Source of the DNA: a virus
Direction: 5' to 3' (one strand)
Virus record (IMG/VR): IMGVR_UViG_3300045988_173544
Length of the DNA stretch: 64,000 nt
Part shown: piece by piece, positions 5,444 through 46,490 of the stretch
Layout: every line of letters starts with the position of its first letter
How positions within the stretch are numbered: position 1 is the first letter of the stretch
Position numbers and translations under genes: made by a program
Notes under the pieces: model-generated
What the model saw: only the letters and a program-made list of their open reading frames with translations
Databases searched by the model: none
What the model was told of the DNA's origin: nothing

Positions 5444-6115
5444 TCAATTTTTTGCTAAGATGTCGTCTATATCTGATTTTGAGAGTAAATCTGTCTTATA
5501 TTTATCTTTCAAATCAATATTATTTCGGACAAAATCTTCCATGCTCTTTGAAAAATATACAGGTAAATCATTCTTTAATGTTTCCGTAGCTTCTTCAAGA
5601 GCAAACTTAACCTCTTTTATCCAACAGATATACCATGTATTTTTGAACACTTGGTCAAAATCTTCATTGTTATCTATAACAAGAGATGTTTCTACTTCCA
5701 GAATTTTATCATCTGAATACAGGTAGTTAGAGCTTGTTTGAAAAAGTAATTCTTCCGGATTATCTAAATCTTCCTCGAAAAATTCTTTAGTCTTGTACAA
5801 AACAACTCTTATAGAAGATTTTGAGAGTAAGTGTATTCGTAGGCAATAGGATTTCTTCGTGATAGGAGCTTCCCAACTTATATAGAACTCCGGTTTTCTC
5901 TTATCAACCATTCTGGTCAACTCATCACCTACAGCCACGTATTCCCATGCGTCCCAGTTAAGCTTCAAGAGTTTTTTCGAGAACTTTAGAGCTTTGTCGT
6001 AAACTTCTTCACTGGTATATTTCTTGTACTTTGGAGTAGTTTCCATGTATTGAAAATCTCTATTAAGTACAAGGTTTATTGATTTCAAGTTACTTTTAGG
6101 GACTTCTAAAGTCAT
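5444..6115 (-). CDS. hypothetical protein (223 aa)
   Basis: ORF; conserved UTR AGGAGATACGAACA-ATG; promoter 6156..6184. Confidence 0.6.
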   Translation of the reverse strand: MTLEVPKSNLKSINLVLNRDFQYMETTPKYKKYTSEEVYDKALKFSKKLLKLNWDAWEYVAVGDELTRMVDKRKPEFYISWEAPITKKSYCLRIHLLSKSSIRVVLYKTKEFFEEDLDNPEELLFQTSSNYLYSDDKILEVETSLVIDNNEDFDQVFKNTWYICWIKEVKFALEEATETLKNDLPVYFSKSMEDFVRNNIDLKDKYKTDLLSKSDIDDILAKN

Positions 6116-27384: not shown

Positions 27385-28767
27385 TTATTTCTCTGCATAA
27401 TTCTTAAGGTTAATAGCAGCATTTTCATCCCTATCCATTACCATCCCGCACTTAGGGCACTTAAATACTTCATAACCTTTTTTCATCTCTTTATTCTTAT
27501 ATCCACAGTTACTACATATTTGTGAGCTTGCAAAGAACCTATCTGCTTTTATTACATTAACACCATTTCTTTCAGCTTTATACTTCAGCCAATCAAGCCA
27601 TGTACCCATACTTGTTTTCTGTATACCTTTAGCTACCTTCTTATTTTTCTTCATATTATTTATAGCAATATTTTCTACTACAATACTTTCAGGAGCTATT
27701 CTCTTTAATAAGTGAGCTACAGACTGCTTTCTATTATCTTCCTTAATATTCTCTATTTTTATCTGTGTACTTCTTAAATATCTTTCCAGTCTTCTTAACT
27801 TATTACTCTTTCTTAATCTCTTATTACCATAAGGAGTTTCTATATAATCATTATTAAGTCTTGCATGCAGCTGTAGTGTACTTATCTTTCTCTGTAATCT
27901 CTTACACTTTCTTTCATACTTTTTAACTTTCTCAGAAGTTGCAGGATTTAATACTTTAGTACCATCTGAAAGAGTTGCCAGTTTTCTACACCCTACATCT
28001 ACTCCCAATACTCCTTCTAAGTTTTGTAAGTTCAAATCATTATCTCTATATTCTGTTTTTACTGAAACAAAGAAATCTATACCATCTGTAGAAACTGTAA
28101 TATAATCTGCTAAAGTACCTTCTAATCTTCTATCCCAACCTTTTATCTTCATACCACCTTTTATTTTAGGAAGATATAACTTTCCATCTTTTATTCTTCC
28201 TACAGTAGTATAAGAACCTTTTGAAGACCATTTATGTGGTTTAGGAAATCCTTTAGCGTCAGCAGGGAATTTTAAGCTAGCTTCTTCCCCCTTCTTACTT
28301 CTCAGTTTTCTCTGCCTTTCATAGAAATCTGCTAAAATTTCTGAAGCACCATAATTACCTTTAGCGTCTTTCTTAAAATACTTCTCATTCCAAAACTTCT
28401 TATTAGCTGTATATAAAGCTCCTATAGAAGCCGGACTTACAACACAATCCAAAGCTTTTGCGTCACATTCTCTTAACCATGCATTTTCCGGAAGTTTCTT
28501 AAACTGTGTAAACTCCTTACTTATTCTTCCAAAATTCTTAATATTCTTTACTTTAGAGCTTGCTATATCATCAATATTTATATCATAATCTTCTTCATAT
28601 AATCCTTGCAATTCTCTACAGCCCCAATTATACGTAAATCTTGCAGCTGTAATATTTTTCTGCATTGCTGCTTTTTGCGCTTTATTTACGTGGATTTCTC
28701 TCTTAAACCCAATTTTACCTACACTCTCCTCTTTATCCTCTACAGGAGCTAACAACATTTCTTCCAT
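27385..28767 (-). CDS. tnpB: TnpB/Cas12f-like RuvC nuclease (IS605 OrfB family), ~460 aa
   Basis: RuvC-I GVDVG; C-terminal CSNCG...CPKCG zinc finger and RuvC-III DRDENAAINL; N-terminal FTYNWGCRELQ block; AGAGAGG RBS; dedicated promoter 28946..28974. Confidence 0.8.
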   Translation of the reverse strand: MEEMLLAPVEDKEESVGKIGFKREIHVNKAQKAAMQKNITAARFTYNWGCRELQGLYEEDYDINIDDIASSKVKNIKNFGRISKEFTQFKKLPENAWLRECDAKALDCVVSPASIGALYTANKKFWNEKYFKKDAKGNYGASEILADFYERQRKLRSKKGEEASLKFPADAKGFPKPHKWSSKGSYTTVGRIKDGKLYLPKIKGGMKIKGWDRRLEGTLADYITVSTDGIDFFVSVKTEYRDNDLNLQNLEGVLGVDVGCRKLATLSDGTKVLNPATSEKVKKYERKCKRLQRKISTLQLHARLNNDYIETPYGNKRLRKSNKLRRLERYLRSTQIKIENIKEDNRKQSVAHLLKRIAPESIVVENIAINNMKKNKKVAKGIQKTSMGTWLDWLKYKAERNGVNVIKADRFFASSQICSNCGYKNKEMKKGYEVFKCPKCGMVMDRDENAAINLKNYAEK

Positions 28768-28945
28768 ATTACCTCTCTTAATAATTTTCAGATGTAACAA
28801 AGGGAGAAGAGTCAGAGGTAAAAATTCTCCAAGGTAAAAATATTGTAAAAACCCTTAGAGAAGAAAAATAACATTTAACACATAATAAAGTCCCAACTCT
28901 TCCCCTGTGTTACACATCTAAAATCGTTCCTATCTTTATGTATCT

Positions 28946-32924: not shown

Positions 32925-33455
32925 ATGGAACATTATGCAGGACGACACTTAATAATTGATGGCGTGTTCCGCCCCGATAAAAAAGAATTATTATCAGACC
33001 GTACAACTATATCACAATACTTAGAAGATGTGACCAAAATAACAGGGATGACTTTAGTATTTCCGCCGATAGCAATGTCTTTCCCTTTTGCTGGAGAAAC
33101 CGATAGACTTATAGAAAAACTTGAAGCAGAAGGTAAATGTGACGATAGCGCTGTTTTCCAAGAGTTTAAGAAACATATACACCAGCGCAATACTATTGGT
33201 GGAGGAGTTTCAGCTATAGCTGTATGGGTTGAAAGTCACTGCACAGTGCATTCTTGGACTGAGAAAAATTACGTAAGTATTGATTTATTCTCATGCTCCA
33301 GTTATGAATATGAGCCGGTTGTTGATTTTACAAACAAAATATTTGGCTTGGAGAAAGCAAGTTACGTTGTCGTAGACCGCATGATGGACGGTTCCGCACC
33401 ATTAATCCAACAATTCACTCTGGATGAACTTAATAAAATATCTTGTGCGGTATAA
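32925..33455 (+). CDS. pyruvoyl-dependent S-adenosylmethionine decarboxylase-like (SpeH/SpeD class 1) proenzyme
   Basis: GRHLIIDG N-terminus and VESH..HSWTE..IDLFSC self-processing/active-site pattern. Confidence 0.55.
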   Translation: MEHYAGRHLIIDGVFRPDKKELLSDRTTISQYLEDVTKITGMTLVFPPIAMSFPFAGETDRLIEKLEAEGKCDDSAVFQEFKKHIHQRNTIGGGVSAIAVWVESHCTVHSWTEKNYVSIDLFSCSSYEYEPVVDFTNKIFGLEKASYVVVDRMMDGSAPLIQQFTLDELNKISCAV

Positions 33456-34386: not shown

Positions 34387-34461
34387 TGGTTGCGGGGGAG
34401 GGAGTTGAACCCACTACTTCTGGGTTATGAGCCCAGTGTGCAACCGGTACACTTCCCCGCT
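34387..34461 (-). tRNA. tRNA-Met (CAT), initiator-like: GGG/CCC anticodon stem, CUCAUAA loop, mismatched 1:72, CCA encoded
   Basis: manual cloverleaf fold. Confidence 0.7.
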
Positions 34462-34466
34462 ATATA

Positions 34467-34811
34467 CTAATTTAAGAATTCTTTAAAATCATACGACTTG
34501 TACATTTTTCGTTTAGAAGGTCTTGTCGGAGCTTCGATAACTCGTAAATAGTTCTGCTGAACCTTATAACAATAAGATGAATAAAGTTTCGGATTATCGT
34601 TTTTAAAACGTGTTTGGTCAAAGTACGTTCTAGGTTGTGTAATGTGATGAACTCCGTAATTCCCTACGGTCACTACATCACCGGGTTTTATATGTTCTTT
34701 TAAACGCCCTTGCAGTTCTTCGATTTCCCTCTGTAAGATACGTTCCTGTTCTTTGAGGTTTACGTAATGTTGTATGTCAATCTCAAAAGCGGTGCGTTCT
34801 CTTTCGTCCAT
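34467..34811 (-). CDS. hypothetical protein (115 aa; start at MDERERT)
   Basis: ORF trimmed so it does not overlap tRNA-Ser. Confidence 0.5.
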   Translation of the reverse strand: MDERERTAFEIDIQHYVNLKEQERILQREIEELQGRLKEHIKPGDVVTVGNYGVHHITQPRTYFDQTRFKNDNPKLYSSYCYKVQQNYLRVIEAPTRPSKRKMYKSYDFKEFLN

Positions 34812-34822
34812 AATAACCTTCC

Positions 34823-34911
34823 TGGAGGAGAGCCTGAGAGTTGAACTCAAGACACATTGTGCCCGATGGGTTTAGCAAACCCTCCTAAGGACCGCCCTAG
34901 TGGTACTCTCC
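34823..34911 (-). tRNA. tRNA-Ser (GCT), class II, CCA encoded
   Basis: acceptor GGAGAGT/GCTCTCC, anticodon loop TTGCTAA, long variable arm, T-loop TTCAACT. Confidence 0.7.
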
Positions 34912-35227
34912 TTACAGAAAAGTATATCATAGTTTTTATAAAAAGTCAACTAACTTGGTAATATTTCCCTAGTTTCCTAGAGGTAGGTATTTACTGGGTT
35001 ACTTACGCTTGTCGAACTGCCCAACCTACGGTCCCATCGCTCTATGTGTTTTGTACAAGATTTTCACTTGGAGCCAACTGCATGCAGGGGTTCTTTTAAT
35101 TCACATACTACCGGCAATCGATAGAAGGGTATGACCTCCACGGGGTGACAAAATCCCGCTTTCTCATACTATGCAGACTATTACCAAGTCAGTTAACCAA
35201 TTCTTTAAATAGATTAGTTGACCTTAA

Positions 35228-35303
35228 TTGGAAGGTCGTGTGGGATTTGCACCCACGCATAATGGTTTTGCAGACCACCTCGTTAACTACTTCGACAACG
35301 ACC
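35228..35303 (-). tRNA. tRNA-Cys (GCA), U73 discriminator, CCA encoded, T-loop TGCAAAT (G55)
   Basis: perfect 7-bp acceptor AGGTCGT/ACGACCT; anticodon stem GTGGT/ACCAT. Confidence 0.65.
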
Positions 35304-35583
35304 TAAGAGTCTCAGCATATTCCCGATTTTCTTTTCTTAATCTCTCAATAGCTAACTTCTGTAATAACTCAGCTTGTTCTCGTCTTAGTTCTTGATATTC
35401 TTGACAAGTTGCTTTATCTGACGAAATACAAGTATAACTTGAGGTTGTACCCGAACCCGTCTTAAATAAGATGGGAACAATCATGATAAGTAGAAATATC
35501 AATGCTCCAATAGGGAGTAACCATATTAAATCTACGCAACTATAATTAGGTGATTTTGTTCCATCTTTATTATCAATACTCAT
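35287..35583 (-). CDS. hypothetical small membrane protein
   Basis: ORF; hydrophobic core. Confidence 0.45.
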   Translation of the reverse strand: MSIDNKDGTKSPNYSCVDLIWLLPIGALIFLLIMIVPILFKTGSGTTSSYTCISSDKATCQEYQELRREQAELLQKLAIERLRKENREYAETLRSLSK

Positions 35584-36134
35584 TGTACTACCTCCTTTAT
35601 ATCTCCCTTAAAATCACGAGTCCAATTTTCCCACGGAATGTGACCTTCGGGAATTCTTTGTTCGGGTAGGGAAGCTTCGTTTAATTTACCTAATACGTAT
35701 TTCTTGTTATGGTCAACAGCCCGACATTCACAATTCCCTTCGTATAATTCAAGGAATGATGTTATTTTTCCACATCTTGGGCAAGTGAATACTTCCCCTG
35801 TTACTGTTAATGCGCAGCACTCTAGTAAGAAATCATTTAAAGTTTCAGGATACTTAAATCCCTCGAAAGACACCACCCGCCCGTTTGATAACCTTCTAAG
35901 AATAGTTCCGTACTCGTATGATAAATAATCCTCTTTCGAAGGGCGTGTATAAAGTCCTAAATCATCCCTAGACTCCATAAGTTTCTTTTCCCAAGGAGTA
36001 TGAACTTTAGAAAAAATAGCGTCTATGAGGTTTCTCTCGGATTGATTAAATAGACTACGTCTTTGTTGTCTTAATGTAAATAACTTATGCTCTGTTAAGT
36101 CAATCCGAGGTTGATTTGGAACTTGAACTACCAT
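35580..36134 (-). CDS. hypothetical protein with CPRCG...CEC zinc motif
   Basis: ORF. Confidence 0.55.
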   Translation of the reverse strand: MVVQVPNQPRIDLTEHKLFTLRQQRRSLFNQSERNLIDAIFSKVHTPWEKKLMESRDDLGLYTRPSKEDYLSYEYGTILRRLSNGRVVSFEGFKYPETLNDFLLECCALTVTGEVFTCPRCGKITSFLELYEGNCECRAVDHNKKYVLGKLNEASLPEQRIPEGHIPWENWTRDFKGDIKEVVQ

Positions 36135-36143
36135 TACACCCTC

Positions 36144-36917
36144 CTATATGAAAGGTTTTGCTATAGCAGTTCGCACATTTTTAATGAAACTTTTAAAGAA
36201 CCCTTGTTTCCTCGGTTTCAAAACATACTTGCTTTTCTCATCTTCAATAAGATTATTGATATATGTTCGTACTTCCTCTTCTGTTGCTTGCGGGAGTGAT
36301 ACTTCTTTTGCTACATCATCTTTACCCATTTGACCAAGTTCTTGTACAAGTTTTGTCAGAGTTAAGTCGCAGAATTCATCTTCCCAGTCAGCGATGAAAT
36401 AAAATCTGTCGTGAATATTCCAGATATTATTAGTCTTTTCTTCAAAAGCTCCAAAAACTATAGGGTCTCGCTGTCTTTCTTCTACTGCAATCTGTCGTTC
36501 TGTTTCTCCAGTATAATCAGTAAATACAACATAGAACTGGTCGAAGATTTTTAAAGACTTAAGTTCAGAAATTTTTTGAACTACTTCATCTGGAATTATT
36601 CTAGGGTATTTAGATAATTCAATAATTTTAACAACTCTACCCTTAACATTGTTCAAGTAAAAAGTAATATCTTCAGATAGGACATAAGTTGAAATCCCGT
36701 GTTTAAGAAGTTCTCTTTCTTTGGTTATAACACCATAAGTGAATGCAAGTCTTTGTACAACTGCATTTTGACCTACTGCCATAGCCTTAGTTAACTCCTT
36801 CATAATAATATTCTTGAAGGAAGTAAGAAAATCGTCAGACATGTCTAACTTATGCTCTTTAACGAAGTTAAAATATTCTTGAGGGCTTAATTCCTGCTTA
36901 ATGTTCTCATTGTCCAT
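36144..36917 (-). CDS. hypothetical protein (257 aa)
   Basis: ORF; promoter ~36965. Confidence 0.55.
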   Translation of the reverse strand: MDNENIKQELSPQEYFNFVKEHKLDMSDDFLTSFKNIIMKELTKAMAVGQNAVVQRLAFTYGVITKERELLKHGISTYVLSEDITFYLNNVKGRVVKIIELSKYPRIIPDEVVQKISELKSLKIFDQFYVVFTDYTGETERQIAVEERQRDPIVFGAFEEKTNNIWNIHDRFYFIADWEDEFCDLTLTKLVQELGQMGKDDVAKEVSLPQATEEEVRTYINNLIEDEKSKYVLKPRKQGFFKSFIKNVRTAIAKPFI

Positions 36918-37066
36918 GCTTGTTCTCCTTTATGAGAGAATTATATCACAAGAAAGGCAATTTGTCAACTTTTATGTAATAATGGTCTGGATAGCCGGCT
37001 CCGCCCCGGCGACAGAGGTCCCCAAAGCCCCTATGTTACTAAGCTACACTATATCCAGATAATTAA

Positions 37067-37158
37067 TGGAGGAGAGAGTGGGATTTGAACCCACGGAGGC
37101 TTTTAGACCCCGACAGTTTTCAAGACTGCTCCAATAAGCCAGGCTCTGGCACCTCTCC
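37067..37158 (-). tRNA. tRNA-Ser (TGA), class II, CCA encoded
   Basis: manual fold. Confidence 0.75.
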
Positions 37159-37165
37159 ATAAAAA

Positions 37166-37239
37166 TTCCCCCGCTACGACTCGAACGTAGGAAATATCGG
37201 AACCAAAATCCGACGCCTTACCAGCTTGGCTACAGGGGA
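37166..37239 (-). tRNA. tRNA-Gln (TTG), U1:A72
   Basis: manual fold. Confidence 0.7.
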
Positions 37240-37248
37240 GTATAAAAA

Positions 37249-37320
37249 TACCCGGTGCTGGATTTGAACCAACGACCTCCACTTTGTAAGAGTGGCATTC
37301 TACCGCTGAATTAACCGGGC
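37249..37320 (-). tRNA. tRNA-Val (TAC)
   Basis: manual fold. Confidence 0.7.
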
Positions 37321-37325
37321 TTGAA

Positions 37326-37400
37326 TGGAGCGAGTAGAGGGAGTCGAACCCTCGCCGTCTGTTTGGAAGACAGAAATCATAACCGTTAGACCACACTCGC
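37326..37400 (-). tRNA. tRNA-Gly (TCC), CCA encoded
   Basis: manual fold; anticodon loop CTTCCAA. Confidence 0.75.
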
Positions 37401-37405
37401 AAAAT

Positions 37406-37479
37406 CACCCTCGGCAGGACTCAAACCTGCGACGTGAGACTTAGAAGGTCCCTGTTCTATTCATCTGAACTACGAGGGT
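37406..37479 (-). tRNA. tRNA-Arg (TCT), A1:U72
   Basis: manual fold. Confidence 0.65.
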
Positions 37480-37484
37480 TTATT

Positions 37485-37557
37485 AGCCCCCTAGAGGATT
37501 TGAACCCCTGACATCCACGTCCGTAGCGTGGTGTTCTTTCCGCTGAACTAAGGAGGC
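37485..37557 (-). tRNA. tRNA-Arg (ACG)
   Basis: manual fold. Confidence 0.7.
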
Positions 37558-37755
37558 TTAGTCTGAGTAATCCCTTAACTGTTCTAAAAGAACACGTTTA
37601 CCATCAGGTTTTATAAGTACGCAACCTTGAATAGGTTTGTAATTACAAGCATACCCCAGTGCGTCTGCCTTAGCATGGCATTCCCAATTACTCATAAATA
37701 CGCCAAGTCCTAAAACCAAGAGGACTGTTATTACAATCAAATTAAACTCTGCCAT
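37558..37755 (-). CDS. small membrane protein (65 aa)
   Basis: ORF with TM helix. Confidence 0.45.
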   Translation of the reverse strand: MAEFNLIVITVLLVLGLGVFMSNWECHAKADALGYACNYKPIQGCVLIKPDGKRVLLEQLRDYSD

Positions 37756-37763
37756 AATTTACC

Positions 37764-38057
37764 TCATTTATCTTCCTGAGGTGGAAATATCCAATCGTAC
37801 ACTGTATTAACTATTTTTAAAGGTAGAAATAAGAACCCTAAAATTAGTGCAAAAGGCTGCGCAAAATTTAAGAATTCTTCCGGACTCATTCCAGTGAGTA
37901 AATAAACTTCGTGGAATAAATCCTCGTTTTTCTCTACATATTCATCTATGTTGTTGAGCTTCCTTTTCAGAAGACACCAACAAATAATCCCTGAAATTAT
38001 GTAATAGTATAGAAAATACATTAACTGAGTTCCCACAGTAGATAATTCAATACCCAT
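37764..38057 (-). CDS. small membrane protein (97 aa, 2 TM)
   Basis: ORF; promoter ~38085. Confidence 0.5.
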   Translation of the reverse strand: MGIELSTVGTQLMYFLYYYIISGIICWCLLKRKLNNIDEYVEKNEDLFHEVYLLTGMSPEEFLNFAQPFALILGFLFLPLKIVNTVYDWIFPPQEDK

Positions 38058-38106
38058 AGCTCTATGTTAGCATATTTTTGAAGATTTGTCAACTTTTTAG
38101 AAATAA

Positions 38107-38182
38107 TGCCCAAGACTGGAGTCGAACCAGCAAATGTCGCAGGGTCTAAACCTACCGCCTTTACCAATTTGGCAACTCGGGC
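38107..38182 (-). tRNA. tRNA with anticodon TAG (decodes CUA, Leu) but a class-I-like 7-nt variable region
   Basis: manual fold; canonical acceptor, D and T arms. Confidence 0.55.
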
Positions 38183-38188
38183 TTTTAT

Positions 38189-38273
38189 TAGGCATGACTG
38201 GAGTCGAACCAGCATTGTTTCTAATGTGATGGATTTTAAGTCCATTGCGTTTCACCAATTTCGCCACATGCCC
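38189..38273 (-). tRNA. tRNA-Leu (TAA), class II
   Basis: manual fold; long variable arm. Confidence 0.75.
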
Positions 38274-38461
38274 TTAAATATCATACAATAGGATTACTTG
38301 AGTACCTATATCTCTCTTCCCAGGTATATGTGCTTACCTAGGGTAGTTTTAAGAGTGTTTTCTTCTGCCCATACTGAAATCTTACCAACTACAAATCTAT
38401 TTTCCAGTAGCAACGGATATTTATGCAGACAAGTTATTCGTTAAACTATGTATGATAATGG

Positions 38462-38534
38462 TGAGTGCAGAAAGGTTTGAACTTTCACCTTGTATCTTAA
38501 AAGGATACTGCTCTACCAATTGAGCTATACACTC
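38462..38534 (-). tRNA. tRNA-Lys (TTT)
   Basis: manual fold. Confidence 0.7.
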
Positions 38535-38541
38535 ATTTTAA

Positions 38542-38618
38542 TGGTGGCTCCGGTTAGATTTGAACTAACGACGCTAGCCTCTTCAGGGCTACGCTCTACC
38601 CGACTGAGCTACAGAGCC
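38542..38618 (-). tRNA. tRNA-Phe (GAA), CCA encoded
   Basis: manual fold. Confidence 0.75.
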
Positions 38619-38939
38619 TCATAGACAACTTTTACAAGCATTTCCACCGCCGTGTTTCACGCACTCCGCATACGCATTTTGTTTTAAAATATCTTTAAAA
38701 CGGTCATAATCTTTATAACAATCATTACGATTACTGTAATAAAGACGTGAAATATCAGTACCGTATAACCTAATAAACATAGGGTCAAAAACCCCGGAAT
38801 TACCGCAATAACAAGCTGCCCCAACAATATTAGAAGTTTTAACAACTGTTATACCATCGTCATGTGCTTCAAATATAGTACTTTGCGCTAATACAGGGAC
38901 TGTATATAAAAATAACATAAGTATTAAAAATTTCTTCAT
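38619..38939 (-). CDS. secreted Cys-rich protein with signal peptide (106 aa)
   Basis: ORF; MKKFLILMLFLYTVPVLA signal-like N-terminus. Confidence 0.5.
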   Translation of the reverse strand: MKKFLILMLFLYTVPVLAQSTIFEAHDDGITVVKTSNIVGAACYCGNSGVFDPMFIRLYGTDISRLYYSNRNDCYKDYDRFKDILKQNAYAECVKHGGGNACKSCL

Positions 38940-38959
38940 TATGTAATCCTCTTTAAATA

Positions 38960-39031
38960 CGCAGGTTGCATGAATTGAACATGCGACTCGTAGTTTTGGA
39001 GACTAGAATTTTACCGCTAAACTAAACCTGC
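38960..39031 (-). tRNA. tRNA-Trp (CCA), with a C:C mismatch at 27:43
   Basis: manual fold; perfect acceptor GCAGGTT/AACCTGC and T-stem GCATG/CATGC. Confidence 0.55.
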
Positions 39032-39270
39032 ATGTTATTCTTTAATCTAGGACACCAATCCGGTATCGGTAGTTCTTTGTAAGTTAAAGCAGACCTTAAA
39101 ATTGGGTATCCCCAGTTTGTCTTAACTCCAGACTCTTTGAACTTTTGTACTTCTTCCTTTGAATACTGTTTGTAGTAGCAACAATATTTTGGTCTCCCCT
39201 GGAGCATGCCATTGTGTCTGCAATATTCACAATCATTACAATCTGTAATCTCTATAATAATTTTGTTCAT
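39022..39270 (-). CDS. Cys-rich small protein (start MNKIII)
   Basis: ORF trimmed to internal Met. Confidence 0.4.
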   Translation of the reverse strand: MNKIIIEITDCNDCEYCRHNGMLQGRPKYCCYYKQYSKEEVQKFKESGVKTNWGYPILRSALTYKELPIPDWCPRLKNNMQV

Positions 39271-39285
39271 TGTCTTCCTTGTCCT

Positions 39286-39362
39286 TGGGGTGACGGGAGG
39301 GGTTTGAACCCTCAACCGCCGGAACCACAATCCGGAGCTCTAGCCAATTGAGCTACCGCCAC
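39286..39362 (-). tRNA. tRNA-His (GTG), C73, CCA encoded, no G-1 encoded
   Basis: manual fold. Confidence 0.7.
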
Positions 39363-39394
39363 AGCTTTTATATAACCTTAGTGTAAATCCACAT

Positions 39395-39553
39395 CAGGTT
39401 ATGCGTTGTGTCCTTTAACTTCCTTAGGTTCAAAACTTCTTAACCAATATAAGTCCCCATCAGTAGGGATTTTCTCAGGCATTCCAAGTTCAATACCTAA
39501 AACTTTTTCCGGTTTCTCAGATATTTGGTCTTCTATAATAACTGTATTTGTCA
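39395..39553 (-). CDS. tiny ORF (~52 aa) with its own consensus promoter at ~39575-39605
   Basis: below the ORF-track size cutoff; promoter TTGACA-17-TATAAT. Confidence 0.35.
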
Positions 39554-39608
39554 TATACTTCATTACCCTGTAATTAATTATAACATATTATTATATATTT
39601 GTCAACTT

Positions 39609-39812
39609 TTAGAAAGTACATGTTGCTATCACTAATAGAAATGATATGATTGCAAGCACAAGCATAACTGTTTTAAATGCTTCGTATATTTTCCTCTTTA
39701 AAGTACATTTACACATTTCCTGAGGGCAAATACTCCAGTAATAGCATTGTTCGCACTTATGGGTAAAATTAAGCTCACAACGTTCAATCATTTTTATTAT
39801 CTCCAGAACCAA
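39609..39812 (-). CDS. small Cys-rich membrane protein (67 aa)
   Basis: ORF; C-terminal TM. Confidence 0.45.
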   Translation of the reverse strand: MVLEIIKMIERCELNFTHKCEQCYYWSICPQEMCKCTLKRKIYEAFKTVMLVLAIISFLLVIATCTF

Positions 39813-40038
39813 TAGAGTTACACATATACCCTACAGAACTCCTTGGGTAAATTTCACTATTTATCTTCTGCAATACTTCTTCCGGAAAATAAGAGCCTTT
39901 AAAATCTCCGCCAAAGAAGTATTTTACGTAATATCTAATTCCAGCTCTATCAATATCCATAGAGTCTACATATCCCTTAATATTTAATTCCTCTATAAAT
40001 ACCCTATCGCCTATGTCATATTTAGTATTCAGTTTCAT
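39784..40038 (-). CDS. hypothetical protein (84 aa)
   Basis: ORF. Confidence 0.45.
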   Translation of the reverse strand: MKLNTKYDIGDRVFIEELNIKGYVDSMDIDRAGIRYYVKYFFGGDFKGSYFPEEVLQKINSEIYPRSSVGYMCNSIGSGDNKND

Positions 40039-40284
40039 ATTATGTATCCTTTGTTTAAGAAATAATGGAGGGAGTTTTTTAATTGCCTTGCAGGAACCAC
40101 CTGCTACGTGCCCTCCTCACGCCGTCGAACGCCGACGGTATGTGCCTTTCGTGAGTCAGTATGCCGACTACCTTTCGTACTCTCGGATACGGAGGAATTT
40201 CTACTGCCGTCTGGTTATGTTTATTTGTTCGGGAGGTCGAAACCAGAGTAAAGGACCTCACCTGCTTTTGTGCAAGGTCTCCAA

Positions 40285-40374
40285 TGGTGGGTAAGGAAGG
40301 AGTTGCACCTCCAACGGCTTGTTAGGCAACGCTTTTACAGAGCGGTCCGACCAACTGGTATTCGGCTCTTACCC
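40285..40374 (-). tRNA. tRNA-Tyr (GTA), class II, CCA encoded, T-loop TGCAACT (G55)
   Basis: perfect acceptor GGGTAAG/CTTACCC; anticodon loop CTGTAAA. Confidence 0.65.
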
Positions 40375-40398
40375 ATAGCACCGGAAAATGCTGAAAAA

Positions 40399-40474
40399 TG
40401 GTGGAACTCGTAGGACTTGCACCCACACCCTAGGACTTATGAGGTCCCCGCTCCGCTGTTTGAGCTAGAGTTCC
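40399..40474 (-). tRNA. tRNA-Met (CAT) elongator-type, CCA encoded, T-loop TGCAAGT (G55)
   Basis: perfect acceptor GGAACTC/GAGTTCC. Confidence 0.65.
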
Positions 40475-40913
40475 AGAGTACGAGTATTTTACAACCCCTC
40501 GTCTAACTGGGCGGCGCTGGTTGATATTTTAATCTCCTTCATACAATGTTCGGGCATTGTATCGAAACTCAGTTTCCCGAAAAACTAAGCCTACGCAGAA
40601 CACGGTTTACACCGAAATGGCACATCTTTAAGGTATTGCCGAGTCGAACGGCTACCTACGTGGCTCCTAACCGTAGTTAGGCGTGGCTGTGAGCGAGTTA
40701 TGAGCCCACTCTGTGCACCGTTGCACTTTCACTTAAAGACAGGTTATATTACGGTTCTTTCACCCCGCTGTCGAATAACACTCAACGACCTGCTATATTA
40801 AAACCCCTAGCAGTGGGTATGCACCAGTATATTAACCCCTACTGGCGGGTTCCTCGGAATGAGGGTTCTTTCACTACAAGAACATTGTAGTATCGCATGG
40901 GATTGGCTACAAT

Positions 40914-40985
40914 TAGGAACGGAAGGACTCGCACCTTCAACCTCTGAATTATCGGTTCAGTGCTCTACTTTTAAGCTACGCTCCT
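40914..40985 (-). tRNA. tRNA-Ile (GAT), T-loop TGCGAGT (G55)
   Basis: manual fold. Confidence 0.6.
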
Positions 40986-41181
40986 ATAGCTGGTTAGGTG
41001 TACTTTTCGTCGAACGTCGACTTTTTTCTCGATTTTTCACCTCTTCCTCAGGAGACCAGTGACCCCTGTGTATACCGCTGTTTTTCACCTACTCTTCTAC
41101 CAGATATTATAGAAGTTTCTCTTATCCCTCAAAAAGTTATCTGCTCTCTTCCTGAGTTTAGGTATACCTCTAGTAGTTTAT

Positions 41182-41255
41182 TGGGAAGGGATGGACTTGA
41201 ACCATCTACCTTGGAGGTATGAGCTCCATGTTCTGACCAGTTGAACTACCTGCCC
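41182..41255 (-). tRNA. tRNA-Met or tRNA-Ile2 (CAT)
   Basis: manual fold; T-stem GATGG/CCATC. Confidence 0.65.
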
Positions 41256-41259
41256 ATAA

Positions 41260-41334
41260 TGGCTCCAGGAGCAGGGCTCGAACCTGCAACCTACCGGTTA
41301 ACAGCCGGGCGTTCCGCCATTGAACTATCCTGGA
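41260..41334 (-). tRNA. tRNA-Asn (GTT), CCA encoded
   Basis: manual fold. Confidence 0.7.
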
Positions 41335-41506
41335 ATATGACCCCGGTGTATCGTCCCGGAGATACGCATTCTTTCCAGCTAAGGAAACTGAAACCTTTTC
41401 CAAAACCCCGCCTATAGGAATGAAACAGACGCTTGTTATTAGAGCTCATAAACAAGAGGGACTGCAATAAAATTGCTTGGTACACCTGAGTTACACATCT
41501 TAAAAC

Positions 41507-41577
41507 TGCCTCCAGAGGGACTTGAACCCCCAAAGCGGGTTTACAAAACCCGTGTTTTACCATTGAACTATAGAGGC
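41507..41577 (-). tRNA. tRNA-Thr (TGT)
   Basis: manual fold. Confidence 0.7.
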
Positions 41578-41757
41578 AAGCGAGTATAACAGAATATGCG
41601 CAATAACTGTTATACCCTAGGTTCTTATTTCGGAATATACCTTAAAACAACCGGGGCAACGCTTTCATCTCATATAAGAGCGTAGGCTACATAAGCTCTT
41701 TCTTCCTTGTCACCTAGCGGAAATAGCCGATACTAGGTCTTAGTTACCCTAATTAAG

Positions 41758-41833
41758 TGGTGGAGACTAAGGGAATTGAACCCTTCCAGTCTGCTTGCAA
41801 AGCAGTCTCGCCAGCCTTGGTACATGAGTCCCC
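41758..41833 (-). tRNA. tRNA-Ala (TGC) with G3:U70 and CCA, but a non-canonical D-arm
   Basis: acceptor GGGGACT/AGTCTCC; anticodon hairpin CTGC-TTTGCAA-GCAG. Confidence 0.5.
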
Positions 41834-42822
41834 AAATTGGGAGCAGGTGCTTTATGTTTAAGTGTTAAACGTCAGAGCTGCTCCAGACAAACATCACTAC
41901 CTTCCTTATATCCCGCTCAATTGGCGTGGCGGTGTGTTCCTAGAGTCTTGTATAGCGCTATTCAACTCTAGCGAACACTGGTTATCCAAGATAACACCGG
42001 GTTTAAAATAAGGGAACCTGCCGAGTCGAACGGCTTACTTCCACGAATATTTAGTTAACGTAGTAGATATTATACTAATACTTAAGTGTCGTGGTAAGGT
42101 AGCGCTACTATAATCAGCAACCCTTTTCATTATTATTTACAAGAGCTCTTATAAATAACAACTAGCTGAAGGTTCCTATAATTAATCTGTTAAACAGGAG
42201 TTAACGGAATTGGACCGTCAATTCCTGTTTTATACTGACTCCGTCGTCAGCCTTCATTTAATATTATCTTCGCCCTTATAAGTCTTTTTATCTGTATTCA
42301 TGATACCTACTTAAATGGCGGTGGGTACGAAGCTCGAATTTGTTTCCTAGGAGTGACAGTCCTAAGTTTTAACCGCATAAACTAACCCACCTTATAAAAT
42401 GGCAGTTCGGGGTGCCAGCCCGCCATCCCGTCGGATGACTGGTACTTGTATCATCTCGGTATACAAGTCAACCGCTGTAACGTTTTCGACCATACAACAC
42501 ATGCTGGTTAAGGTTGTGTGGATTGTCAGGAAGTTGTAAACCAGCAAACTTCCTCCAAGTTACAGTCTGTTTTGAAACTTTGTAATGGTACCCCAGCACG
42601 GTAACGCTCCGAGTGCTCCGCTGTGAAAGAGCGGTGACTTAACTTTCTGTCCCCTGGGGCAAATATGAAACTGTCAACGTGCAATAGACAACACAATTAC
42701 ATCTATGTAATTATTACCATTGTCTGTTGTTTATCAACAGTTCCATTATATCATGGATTACATAATTTGTCAACTAATCTATTCAATTGTCAAAGTGCAA
42801 TTTTGTTCTTTTACAGAACTGA

Positions 42823-43202: not shown

Positions 43203-43625
43203 TTGGAAATAAAGTCGGTCTCAGAAAGTGCAGTATCTTTTGGGTCATACCAGAACATACTGAAAACTCTTTATAAGAAGGGCAAAATGCCTCAAGTAAA
43301 GAGAGGTTTGTACGGGGATATTCTTACTAAAGACAACGTATCTTTGGAACATTTAAAGCCCCACAGCGAAGGAGGAAAAACAATCTTATCCAACTTAGCC
43401 CTTGCGTCTAAGCAGAAAAATAACGCAAGGGGAGCGAAGCCGCTAAGCGAAGTGTTGAATTGGGAAATGGTTAATGACTATTTATCTCAATTCAATTTTC
43501 GTATTAAGGGATTTAACGGTGAAGCTTATGCTGAAATGATTAAGAAGACTGTTGAGGAACTCGGAGTTATAAATCCGAAGGAATTGGCTAAGAAAGGTAA
43601 GAAGCATTTAGATAAAATAGTCTAG
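43203..43625 (+). CDS. HNH endonuclease (free-standing, homing-type) in the tRNA island
   Basis: SLEHLKPHSEGGKT...N...N..RG HNH motif; + strand. Confidence 0.6.
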   Translation: MEIKSVSESAVSFGSYQNILKTLYKKGKMPQVKRGLYGDILTKDNVSLEHLKPHSEGGKTILSNLALASKQKNNARGAKPLSEVLNWEMVNDYLSQFNFRIKGFNGEAYAEMIKKTVEELGVINPKELAKKGKKHLDKIV

Positions 43626-43642
43626 TCATTGCGACTAGACTA
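43618..43642. terminator. bidirectional hairpin tagtctagtc-attgc-gactagacta between HNH (+) and tmRNA (-)
   Basis: perfect 10-bp stem. Confidence 0.5.
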
Positions 43643-43651
43643 TTCTGTAAA

Positions 43652-44044
43652 TGGTGGAGGTGCGGATAATCGAAATCCGGTCCTATCCGTCCTTACAACA
43701 ACTGTTGTACAAGTTTCCTTTGGTTCATCTTTTCTGTCAAGTAAAAGGAGATTGTCAAACAAAGGTTACAAGAGTTCTCCATTGACACCGTTTGCTTTTT
43801 ACTCGTTACGTGAGCGTCTGGAACGATACAGATTACTTTACGGGACTCACCGATGGCTGTGCCTGACCTATTGTAGATTACAGCTTAGTCTACGGGTCAC
43901 TTCTTAGGCAGCGATTGCTGTTCTGTAGCCGAAGTCAGCTTTGATTACGTTGTTAGCGTTTATCTTTTTGTACGATTTAAAGAGTTCATACGTCTCTACT
44001 TGCAATTGAAGCCAGGTTGCAGACAGTCAAAACCTGTCACCCCC
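43652..44044 (-). ncRNA. ssrA: tmRNA (ssrA), ~393 nt; tag reading frame 43904-43957 encodes ANNVIKADFGYRTAIAA-stop
   Basis: 5' GGGGGTG pairs with 3' CACCTCC (G3:U70) followed by ACCA; 3' domain GGAC-CGGAT-TTCGATT-ATCCG matches the tRNA-like domain of tmRNA; the internal tag ORF ends ...AIAA then TAA. Confidence 0.7.
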
Positions 44045-44315
44045 ATGTTACATAGTGTTTAACACCATCTTTATAAAAATATAGATAGCCTTCCTTATCC
44101 GCCTTACATTGACTTAGTTGTTCCCAAGTAATAGTGGTTTGTGGACTAAATTCCTTTGTACAAGGTTCATCAGATTTTTGAAAAACATCCATGCATTCAT
44201 CAAACATGTTATCTAATGTTTTCATGCTTCTGCCTACAAGCAATATTGCGAAGAATGGAATTGACAAACCTATTAAAGCACATGCAATAAATTTCAAAAC
44301 ATTTATAAGAGTCAT
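44037..44315 (-). CDS. small membrane protein (92 aa)
   Basis: ORF with N-terminal TM. Confidence 0.45.
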   Translation of the reverse strand: MTLINVLKFIACALIGLSIPFFAILLVGRSMKTLDNMFDECMDVFQKSDEPCTKEFSPQTTITWEQLSQCKADKEGYLYFYKDGVKHYVTWG

Positions 44316-44566
44316 TAATCATGAGCCTTTCTAAGTAGTAAAGCTAAGTCACTACACATTTGTTCAGTAGCGGTACTTCCAATACGATGGTTCTTTACTT
44401 TCATATCGCAATATTTAAGCGTATATAATATAGCAGCCATCACACCATCTCTGAACCCACAATACCAACACTCATCACTATCGAAGTAATGCCCGTCTGA
44501 GCTATCAAAAGCGTTTAAGAAGGTATCATATAATTCTTTAGTTGTCCTTAATTCTGAAGTTATCAA
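44315..44566 (-). CDS. hypothetical protein (83 aa)
   Basis: ORF. Confidence 0.45.
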   Translation of the reverse strand: MITSELRTTKELYDTFLNAFDSSDGHYFDSDECWYCGFRDGVMAAILYTLKYCDMKVKNHRIGSTATEQMCSDLALLLRKAHD

Positions 44567-45065
44567 AGTTCCACCTATAATTATAAAAACACGGAGATTT
44601 CCTGCTCTCTGAGCTTTACGGTCCTCTAAGCCAGTACGAGTAAGATTTCAATTCTATGTACACTGTGAATTGATTTCCTCTGTAACATCACTACAGACAG
44701 CGCTTGGGAGAAAGCCTAACAGTTCGCAATTACTTAAATATTCTTAGGTTAATTACTCCCAGAAATATCTAAATAGTTAGGGCGCTCTTCTATCTCCATT
44801 AACCAACACCCGGGTCTTTTTGTACTAATCGCTATGCACTTATTTTATCCGTGTTAATTTGTCAAGTTACAATCTTATGAAAGTGAGTACCACCCAGTTA
44901 CTCTTCCCCCTGGAACAGCCATCTTGCTTTGTTAACGTAAGCTCATCCCGTGGCATGCTTATTCGCATATAATTCATTTGAGTTATATGGTCGTTGATTA
45001 AATGTCTGAGAAACGACTAACCAACGATAAGACCTTATATCATGGTACTCACATTAATAATTATA

Positions 45066-46490
45066 TCACGTTTCTTCGGATTTGTCAACTATTTCATTGT
45101 AAATCTCCTTCATTCTTTTTAATAATACCGGTCTTTCGTTCTCAATTTTTTCGTCTAAATACTCCTGCCATAAAGTTTTCAGGATGTCCCCGACCAATTT
45201 TCCGGAAGGAATATTTAAAGTAACCATAACATCGTGCCCGTCCACTGTTAAATCTGTAACTGACGGAATATGTTTAGGGTTGAGAAGCTTGAGACAATCT
45301 TTGTACATTCTCCAGAAATACATGAAATCAGTCTTAGTTTTCATATTAGCTCTGGAGTCGGCATATTTCATCCAAATAAAGTCTTTTAAGGAAACCCCGC
45401 CTTTACCAAGCTTAATTATGAGTTTCATTAAGGACTTTTTTCCACCAATCATAGACATGTGGTTTCCTACAAGAGTTGACACGTACTTCTGGGTATCTTT
45501 CGGAAAACCCCACTTCTTCATATCAACTTCCACGAGCTTTTTACCTGTTTTATCGTGACCTACAAAACGTACTTTACCTTCATCAGATAATTCGTGTGTT
45601 ACTTTTCCAACATCATGATATAGGGCAGCAAGCTTTAAATCAAAGCTAAGATTAACTTTATCCAAAGCTTTTAAAGCGTTTAATACGTGAGTATAAACAG
45701 TCTCGTGGTGGTAATGAGCGCCATCAACACCTCTTAAAGCAGCTACAGCTGGGAAGAAATATTCCAAGAGTTCGTACTCATCCAAATATTTCACAAACCC
45801 GTAACCGTTCCCACAAATAAGTCCTTTAATTAATTCCAGAAGTACTCTTTCTTTCGGAACTGAAGGAGACTTTACCAAATCCCTCAAAGCATGTATTTTA
45901 TAATGAAGATTATCTTCAATGATTAAGTTACTTCCGGCTGCAAAACGGAGAGCTCTTAAGATACGTATAGGGTCGTCTTTAAACTTCTGAAACATATCCC
46001 CGTGCATTCTAAGAACGCCATTGTTCAAATCTTTCCAAGTGCCTGGAATAGTAAGGATTTCCCTGTTATCTTTATTTTCGGGGTCCTGTTTGCAGGTTAA
46101 GAACATTGTATTGATAGTAAAATCCCTGCGCACAGCGTCTTTATACAAATCGTGACATACAGCAATTTCACAACCGCCATATAATAAGACTGGAAAATTT
46201 CTCCCAACAACCGGTCCCATTGATAATGCGCACCCGGTGTGTTTATGTACATCATTTATACTTTTACCAGGATGTAATTCTAATGTGCAATCAACATCTC
46301 TTGGAAGAATTCCCTGTACCATATCACGAACAGCACCTCCAACCATATACAGGGTTCCCATTTCAGAGAATACTTTAGACATTTTATCAAAGCGCTCTAA
46401 AATAGCCCTGCAACTTTTCAGGTCGGACTGCTTTTCAAATAGGGCTTCATCAATACAGTAGTGTGTCTTTACAAGTCCTTTAGTCGTCAT
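45066..46490 (-). CDS. cca: tRNA nucleotidyltransferase (CCA-adding enzyme) with HD domain
   Basis: GGAVRD...DVD polymerase-beta head motif; LAALYHDVGK HD motif. Confidence 0.8.
   Translation of the reverse strand: MTTKGLVKTHYCIDEALFEKQSDLKSCRAILERFDKMSKVFSEMGTLYMVGGAVRDMVQGILPRDVDCTLELHPGKSINDVHKHTGCALSMGPVVGRNFPVLLYGGCEIAVCHDLYKDAVRRDFTINTMFLTCKQDPENKDNREILTIPGTWKDLNNGVLRMHGDMFQKFKDDPIRILRALRFAAGSNLIIEDNLHYKIHALRDLVKSPSVPKERVLLELIKGLICGNGYGFVKYLDEYELLEYFFPAVAALRGVDGAHYHHETVYTHVLNALKALDKVNLSFDLKLAALYHDVGKVTHELSDEGKVRFVGHDKTGKKLVEVDMKKWGFPKDTQKYVSTLVGNHMSMIGGKKSLMKLIIKLGKGGVSLKDFIWMKYADSRANMKTKTDFMYFWRMYKDCLKLLNPKHIPSVTDLTVDGHDVMVTLNIPSGKLVGDILKTLWQEYLDEKIENERPVLLKRMKEIYNEIVDKSEET

Follow-up and report, generated by a model that had tools for sequence, protein, structure and literature searches.

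We analysed a window of 64,000 nucleotides (nt) of DNA from IMG/VR virus record IMGVR_UViG_3300045988_173544. At 43652-44044 its minus strand carries a gene for a transfer-messenger RNA (tmRNA, or ssrA), and 23 tRNA genes lie downstream on the same strand, which is the tRNA island in which an earlier note on this DNA had placed the gene. The RNA has a complete tmRNA architecture, with a tRNA-Ala-like domain, an encoded CCA, a long helix 2, a first pseudoknot (PK1), the context of the resume codon, a 17-codon reading frame and downstream pseudoknots.

The tmRNA gene and its architecture

ARAGORN called a tmRNA at 43652..44044 (-), with the tag ANNVIKADFGYRTAIAA* and the coding part at nt 88-141. 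The Rfam model RF00023 covered 43652..44044 at model positions 1-374 of 374, with 95.5 bits (E 5.9e-36), well above its gathering score of 47. The earlier note had proposed a tmRNA with this tag and had named both programs as checks; their calls agree with each other and with the proposal. The model of two-piece (permuted) tmRNA, RF04321, reached 31.6 bits, below the gathering score of 47, and matched the 5′ part only. Therefore, the gene is of the standard one-piece kind with its usual order intact. The features of the gene are as follows.

43652..44044 (-): one-piece tmRNA (ssrA) gene, 393 nt, 3′ CCA encoded; ARAGORN, Rfam RF00023 and 13 covarying versions
44038..44044 (-): 5′ strand of the acceptor stem, GGGGGUG, 7/7 paired with 43656-43662, G3:U387 included
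43970..43997 (-): pseudoknot PK1, AGAG/CUCU (nt 48-51 with 61-64) and GUAUGA/UCGUAC (nt 54-59 with 70-75)
43958..43964 (-): context upstream of the resume codon, GAUAAAC, with U at -5 and A at -4
43904..43957 (-): tag reading frame GCU...GCC UAA, encoding ANNVIKADFGYRTAIAA*, with two hairpins inside (nt 105-118 and 125-136)
43856..43899 (-): pseudoknot PK2, hairpin of nt 146-150/177-181 and 152-156/168-172, loop GCUGU pairing with ACAGC at nt 185-189
43717..43850 (-): variable body, the PK3-PK4 region, with the PK4 outer stem UGUCAA/UUGACA (nt 258-263/305-310)
43652..43679 (-): T arm CGGAU-UUCGAUU-AUCCG, acceptor 3′ strand CACCUCC and ACCA; T stem 5/5 paired

The 5′ end of the tmRNA reads GGGGGTGACAGG... 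(over a longer stretch, GGGGGTGACAGGTTTTGAC...) and its 3′ end reads ...GGACCGGATTTCGATTATCCGCACCTCCACCA. A G3:U wobble in the acceptor stem is an alanine identity element. The note's description of the ends, with seven of seven acceptor pairs and this wobble, was borne out, and the seven pairs, G3:U included, never varied among aligned relatives (11/11 sequences). PK1 sits between helix 2 and the resume codon. Both of its stems are fully paired and invariant in 11/11 sequences, and therefore PK1 provides no covariation evidence. The internal frame that had been read after AAAAAGATAAAC, GCT AAC AAC ... GCT GCC TAA, is present. In the PK3-PK4 body, the PK4 outer stem and the knot strands CCUUUG/CAAAGG are supported. 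At the level of sequence, every feature of the tmRNA family that could be tested is found here, with the exception of a fully resolved PK3.

On the opposite strand, the open reading frame (ORF) at 43629..43907 had been dismissed as spurious in the earlier note, and we agree. It runs antisense to an RNA with covarying structure, the source record does not call it, and as a protein it is not conserved in relatives, one weak by-product match aside.

Covariation and the tag reading frame

The comparison used 13 distinct tmRNA sequences, with versions from five loci anchored on the helicase, from one contig of IMG/VR and from six metagenome contigs. The covariation counts and the RNAalifold consensus rest on an alignment of 11 sequences. 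RNAalifold predicted 57 pairs, and compensatory double changes were seen at 26 of these. In a named structure of 58 pairs, with pseudoknots for stem 1 of PK1 and for the knot of PK2, 96.2% of the cells were standard pairs, against 31-45% when the 3′ partners were slid by 1-3 columns, and changes on both sides were seen at 26 of the 58 pairs, against 3-9 with slid partners. The covariation score was 0.381 compared with 0.134 in shuffles, and none of 500 shuffles attained any of the observed measures. Compensatory changes have thus preserved the tmRNA architecture throughout a clade of divergent phages.

Helix 2 and the T stem covary heavily. Four of the five T-stem pairs showed compensatory changes while 100% of the cells remained paired, the variants including CGGAU/AUCCG, ACGAG/CUCGU, UGGGU/ACCCA, GCGAG/CUCGC, AAGAG/CUCUU, AUGAG/CUCAU and AGGAG/CUCCU. 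The PK2 hairpin stems were judged by folding each sequence, column counting having been abandoned because MAFFT misaligned them. This hairpin was present, with differing stem sequences, in the free-energy fold of 10 of the 13 relatives; its loop 5-mer was complementary to the downstream knot strand in 11 of the 13, and the knot helix was 98% paired with two compensatory pairs. The PK4 outer stem had three compensatory pairs in the three sequences that still align there. Conservation peaked in the functional core. Mean pairwise identity was 0.92 for PK1 with the resume context, 0.85 for the tag frame and 0.80 for the T arm with the acceptor, and was lowest (0.41) in the PK3-PK4 body.

Two relatives showed deviations of their own. 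In L021 (4790-5193, minus strand), ARAGORN was silent and Rfam scored an intact tmRNA at 108 bits; an interruption of the gene, suspected from the silence of ARAGORN, was ruled out by this match. Surveys made with ARAGORN only would undercount this family of tmRNAs. In L012 (5022-5431), the tmRNA ends in ...CACCUCCA-UUU and the CCA is not encoded; this RNA would therefore depend on a CCA-adding enzyme, the gene for which is a clade-conserved neighbour of the tmRNA gene.

The tag of the window, ANNVIKADFGYRTAIAA, has 17 residues and the C-terminus ...TAIAA, where relatives end in ...ALAA. The consensus of the family is A[N/D]NVI[K/Y/E/S]A[D/N]FG[Y/K][R/K][T/V]A[I/L]AA. The earlier note had called the tag canonical; this is right for its C-terminus, AIAA (ALAA in relatives), but the body of the tag is unusual. 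Ahead of the frame, the resume-codon context, the absence of which the note had named as a refutation, was invariant in 13/13 sequences (UA[A/G]A[C/U], with U-5 and A-4). U-5 and A-4 correspond to U85 and A86 of E. coli tmRNA, which are frame-setting determinants, with A86 the main one defined by experiment (PMC2481249).

Variable sites of the tag numbered 6, 3 and 12 at codon positions 1, 2 and 3, and the peak at the third position was confined to the frame called by ARAGORN. Seven codons varied only synonymously, and the N-terminal ANNVI was synonymous throughout except for one N-to-D change. The tag frame evolves as a translated sequence does. It also folds: the in-frame hairpins AGCUG-ACUU-CGGCU and CAGC-AAUC-GCUG both covary. 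The synonymous third positions of codons 13 and 16, which form a pair, change jointly, and the swap of K6/Y11 for Y6/K11 in the tag is an exchange of an A-U for a U-A pair in a hairpin. Part of the conservation, especially in the ADFG core, may therefore act at the RNA level. For ANNVI at the N-terminus and A[I/L]AA at the C-terminus, the constraint seems to be on the peptide.

The exact window tag recurred in phages whose helicases are only 53-64% identical, and the tag family was near-constant across a clade in which helicases have diverged to ~52% identity. Back-translated patterns of the core ANNVI-x-ADFG had 0 matches in 185,579 GTDB species-representative genomes of bacteria and archaea, nor did the PK1 segment match in the GTDB species genomes; these searches used exact patterns, and a host tag differing within the core would therefore be missed. 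The tag strings were also absent from the searchable literature. By these searches the tag appears to be specific to the phage clade and to come from no sequenced bacterial species.

A real tmRNA with such a tag might serve a purpose of the phage other than generic clean-up, as a device for reprogramming or counter-defence. It could displace the host tmRNA, absorb the stalling caused by host defence nucleases that cleave mRNAs or tRNAs, or route proteins by its private tag to an adaptor or a protease. The constancy of the tag against the divergence of the helicases, the synonymous N-terminal codons and the lack of the core and the PK1 segment in the species genomes are in line with this, as is the location of the gene within a module of tRNA and CCA-enzyme genes. 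Counteracting tRNA-targeting defences has been proposed as a role of such modules (PMC10264068). The sequence does not separate this reading from ordinary trans-translation, however, and the A[I/L]AA terminus is the usual protease signal. Moreover, the window showed neither an adaptor nor a protease of the phage, some members of the clade lack the gene, and the ADFG core is perhaps constrained as RNA. We consider such a specialised role unlikely.

The same data bear on whether the gene could be a passenger, that is, a recently captured host ssrA or an attachment-site fragment without function for the phage. The ssrA gene is a frequent integration site of islands and temperate phages, which carry fragments of it (PMC9004378), and an integrase/invertase-like PHROG match and transposases do occur elsewhere in the window. 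Against this, the gene is full length, spanning model positions 1-374, and not a 3′ fragment, and no recombinase adjoins it, so that neither mark of an ssrA-derived attachment-site fragment is seen. Compensatory changes and codon-level constraint were found in at least 13 divergent phage contigs, and the tag core and PK1 segment in no bacterial species representative. Capture of this kind is already largely refuted and, of all the readings considered, has the smallest chance of being correct.

Gene neighbourhood, carrier element and host

The features that surround the tmRNA gene are listed here.

45066..46490 (-): CCA-adding enzyme (tRNA nucleotidyltransferase, HD domain); phrog_2244, E 3.6e-43; Pfam PolyA_pol, HD and tRNA_NucTran2_2
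45060..45088 (-): extended -10 sigma-70 promoter, TTGACA-17-TGnTATAAT, 12/12 match, 1016 nt upstream of G1 of the tmRNA
44315-44566 (-): small ORF of 83 amino acids (orf83), between promoter and tmRNA
44037-44315 (-): small ORF of 92 amino acids (orf92), between promoter and tmRNA
43612..43646 (-): terminator-like hairpin, core UAGUCUAGUC-GCAAU-GACUAGACUA followed by UUUUAU, directly 3′ of ACCA
43203..43625 (+): HNH-like ORF of 140 amino acids, convergent with the tmRNA, the sole plus-strand gene in this stretch
34387..42391 (-): 23 tRNA genes for 19 amino acids, downstream of the tmRNA; ARAGORN and Rfam

The tmRNA, the 23 tRNAs and the CCA-adding enzyme form a translation module. In relatives, the CCA/HD gene is placed between the helicase gene and the tmRNA gene, and the gene order of the clade is helicase, thioredoxin, CCA/HD enzyme, tmRNA and tRNA array. 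The presence of an encoded CCA in the window and its absence in L012 fit with the conserved adjoining CCA-adding enzyme.

The promoter at 45060..45088 matches the consensus fully and likely drives a unit of orf83, orf92 and the tmRNA. The stop codon UGA of orf92 lies within nt 6-8 of the tmRNA, an overlap of 8 nt, which implies that the 5′ end is freed by processing of the RNase P type. We infer from this arrangement that the two ORFs are co-transcribed with the tmRNA, which RNase P would then process. Relatives of orf83 were found in L017 and L009, whereas orf92 had none in the clade members. Upstream of G1, relatives show other arrangements: L009 and L017 have a 12/12 TTGACA-17-TATAAT promoter whose end is ~10 nt away from G1, L003 has a weaker TTGACT/TAACAT promoter at this place, and in L015 and L018 a tRNA gene lies directly upstream of the tmRNA. 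Promoters of the TTGACA-17-TGnTATAAT type with 12/12 matches occur six times in 20 kb of the window, all on the coding strand, at 48658-48630, 46551-46523, 45088-45060, 42773-42745, 39605-39577 and 36968-36940 (-). These six perfect matches suggest strong transcription of the tRNA/tmRNA module dependent on the host polymerase.

The terminator-like hairpin has a folding energy of -21.1 kcal/mol (z = -7.4), and none of 200 shuffles was as stable; a simple consensus terminator scan did not list it. It is common to the tmRNA and the convergent HNH-like ORF. The earlier note had placed an HNH endonuclease next to the tmRNA. The convergent neighbour is there, but its resemblance to HNH proteins is weak (PHROG E ~1e-4, with HNH matches at E 6e-5 and weaker, and no Pfam match). 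Where relatives have this ORF, its identity is 52-62%, and it is always convergent with the tmRNA if the tmRNA is present. It is also kept in the tmRNA-less relatives L004 and L010, which suggests a core gene rather than a homing endonuclease that goes with the tmRNA.

The window lies in a scaffold of 213,670 bp (ENA ERZ28659773, ZELL14-1_SAMEA2467046_METAG-scaffold_41). One window protein was found on 16 contigs, five of them >200 kb, the longest among the matches listed being 221,412 bp. The window has ~35% G+C, with nearly all genes on one strand and most of them without a known family. Among the family matches are a RecD2/Dda-like helicase, a tRNA nucleotidyltransferase, a BspA-type leucine-rich repeat protein and TnpB. 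Homologues of the helicase with 40-65% identity define a clade of gut and rumen contigs of ~165-240 kb. The tag core is carried by three IMG/VR viral contigs, in two of which ARAGORN calls a tmRNA. PHROG matches to tail-fibre and virion-structural proteins in the window are weak, and a syntenic relative has a Phage_tail_fib match.

These IMG/VR contigs, PHROG matches and conserved synteny speak for the earlier note's view that the tmRNA is encoded by a phage, but neither capsid nor terminase genes were found in the 84 kb examined (the window with 10-kb flanks). A carrier that is an uncultured gut jumbo phage of ~214-221 kb is therefore well supported, but not proven. Searches for close relatives returned little. 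The tmRNA and its surrounding 12 kb had no blastn or megablast match in 50,697 GenBank phage records, and the large window proteins of 893 and 500 amino acids had none in tblastn against GenBank phages. Likewise, peptide patterns of the CCA enzyme found no relatives in IMG/VR, and an exact 32-mer of the tmRNA 3′ end had no match there.

The carrier might instead be a megaplasmid, another large mobile element or a mis-binned bacterial contig. In favour of this, no capsid, portal or terminase gene was seen in the 84 kb, GenBank phages gave no match to two large proteins of putative structural role, and large putative plasmids with similar sets of translation genes have been noted (PMC7162821). 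We nevertheless regard a non-phage carrier as very unlikely. The tail-fibre and virion-structural PHROG matches and the Phage_tail_fib domain in the syntenic relative argue for a phage, and so do the three viral contigs with the tag core, two with a called tmRNA. The relatives are of consistent size, ~195-240 kb; the genes are nearly all on one strand and mostly without a family; strong consensus promoters occur; and no plasmid replication or conjugation families were matched.

Shine-Dalgarno cores precede 25 of 35 ORFs, against a background of 10%. Together with the canonical sigma-70 extended -10 promoters, this argues for a host that uses such signals and is not a member of Bacteroidota. 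Attempts to narrow the host down gave no clue: TnpB and the transposase of the tRNA array had no close relatives with a taxon label, and those of the helicase were unlabelled or only ~30% identical.

Several other observations concern the tRNA island and the rest of the window. The tRNA array has three genes with a CAU anticodon and no tRNA-Glu, though relatives have one near the tmRNA. L002 (ERZ1689342) is the same phage from a second sample, with no difference in the tmRNA or the CCA enzyme; tRNA-Tyr is missing from its island, where the small ORFs also differ from those of L001 and the window, and the tRNA island therefore varies between strains. In the tRNA array of L024, an IMG/VR relative, ARAGORN reports a 'tRNA-???' with a two-base anticodon at 2302-2389, which could be a degenerate or unusual tRNA. 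A transposase-like ORF at 36144-36917 (-) (phrog_10081, E 1.6e-59) lies inside the tRNA array of the window, between tRNA-Cys and tRNA-Pro, and a TnpB (IS605/Cas12f-like) gene is at 27385-28800 (-). An S-adenosylmethionine decarboxylase-like ORF is on the minority strand at 32925-33455 (+) (AdoMet_dc, E 3.4e-17; phrog_3125). At least nine different small ORFs on the minus strand, which start at 6115, 7869, 9065, 13923, 14819, 15301, 17179, 20059 and 26312, have a near-identical leader, ATA(T)AGGAGATACGAAC(A). This leader looks like a repeated ribosome-binding or 5′ untranslated region cassette.

Relation to known tmRNAs and proposed role

The gene resembles bacterial one-piece tmRNA (RF00023) in its tRNA-Ala-like domain with G3:U70, UUCGAUU T loop and CCA; in helix 2, PK1 upstream of a GCN resume codon, U-5/A-4 and the downstream pseudoknots; and in a short ORF with a hydrophobic A[I/L]AA end before the stop. 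Its score lies above the gathering threshold. It differs in being phage-encoded, in the modest score of 95.5 bits and in a highly divergent PK2-PK4 body. Further differences are the 17-residue tag with a core found in 0/185,579 species-representative genomes, the two covarying hairpins in the tag frame and the lack of a cognate smpB nearby.

ARAGORN has found tmRNA in 402 of 18,146 isolate phage genomes, or 2.3%, and roles proposed for phage tmRNA are untested (PMC9004378). As with the tmRNAs of cultured phages in that survey, we see a complete ssrA in a lytic-type phage, often with tRNA genes; unlike them, ours has no blastn similarity among the 50,697 GenBank phage records. The well-described tmRNAs of Melnitz and pelagiphages are two-piece (permuted), linked to a riboswitch and group with a bacterial lineage, whereas the window tmRNA is one-piece and no bacterial counterpart of it was detected. 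A tmRNA is mentioned in many papers on jumbo-phage genomes, and huge metagenomic phages carry tmRNA and SmpB (Al-Shayeb et al. 2020, PMC7162821). Like those huge phages, the carrier is >200 kb, metagenome-assembled and equipped with a tmRNA detected by ARAGORN and many tRNAs; unlike that survey, which reports SmpB, we found none in the 84 kb. Therefore, phage tmRNA as a kind is already known, while this lineage appears to be private to a gut/rumen jumbo clade and to have kept its own tag.

The evidence taken together makes it very probable that the gene is a functional one-piece tmRNA of an uncultured gut jumbo phage and belongs to a phage-specific tmRNA lineage. Several results weigh against this. 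The posterior probability of the RF00023 alignment is low across PK2-PK4. Of the pseudoknots that the earlier note had said to look for, PK1 is invariant, PK2 occurs in nearly all relatives and the outer stem of PK4 covaries, but PK3 as drawn (nt 195-199/231-235 and 219-223/238-242) is unsupported in relatives and was rejected; a local hairpin, GCUC...GAGU changing to GUCC...GGAC, covaries in its place. The invariance of the tag nucleotides at GCUGACUUCGGC (ADFG) may come partly from the RNA hairpin and not from selection on the peptide. The relatives L004, L010 and L011 have no tmRNA at the syntenic place, and no remnant was found in them, the sole nhmmer match being a tRNA-Trp; the gene is therefore dispensable in the clade. 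Capsid, portal and terminase genes are missing from the sequence examined. So is SmpB, which was looked for by tblastn with a sequence of E. coli SmpB, by scanning 52 ORFs of the window against Pfam and PHROG, and by precomputed Pfam labels in the flanks.

As the simplest assumption, the tmRNA presumably uses the SmpB and the alanyl-tRNA synthetase (AlaRS) of its host. Host RNA polymerase would transcribe it from the sigma-70-type promoter 1 kb upstream, and in relatives from a dedicated promoter or with the tRNA array. RNase P would cut at G1 and transcription would end at the hairpin after ACCA. If the host enzymes are compatible, as we assume, AlaRS would charge the tmRNA with alanine and SmpB would bind it. 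The tmRNA could then enter ribosomes stalled on truncated or non-stop mRNAs, of which there would be many during the breakdown of host transcripts by a lytic phage or under the action of defence nucleases of the host. The nascent chain would gain ANNVIKADFGYRTAIAA and be released at UAA, and the ...AIAA C-terminus would send the tagged protein to host proteases of the ClpXP type. In this way, ribosomes and amino acids would stay available for making phage proteins. Together with the 23 tRNAs and the CCA-adding enzyme, the tmRNA would make up a module for the maintenance of translation.

A bolder proposal, to which we give some weight while thinking it rather unlikely, is that the tmRNA lineage is ancient and private to the phages, with the 17-residue tag a degron or label specified by the phage and not a copy from the host. 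If so, a clade of gut/rumen jumbo phages would take over trans-translation during infection and send rescued host or phage polypeptides to a fate of its choosing, and its tmRNA might replace that of the host when phage nucleases or host defences fill the cell with broken mRNAs.

To our knowledge, phage tmRNAs have been catalogued for two decades and their function has never been shown experimentally. The 13 divergent versions make a clean comparative set for phage tmRNA. For annotation, a spurious antisense ORF is removed, and a translation module of promoter, tmRNA, CCA-adding enzyme and 23 tRNAs is defined in an uncultured family of gut jumbo phages. The unique tag makes a search for tagged proteins in infection feasible once the host is found. 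In this family, the comparison shows selection on a phage tmRNA as a folded RNA and also as a template that is translated.

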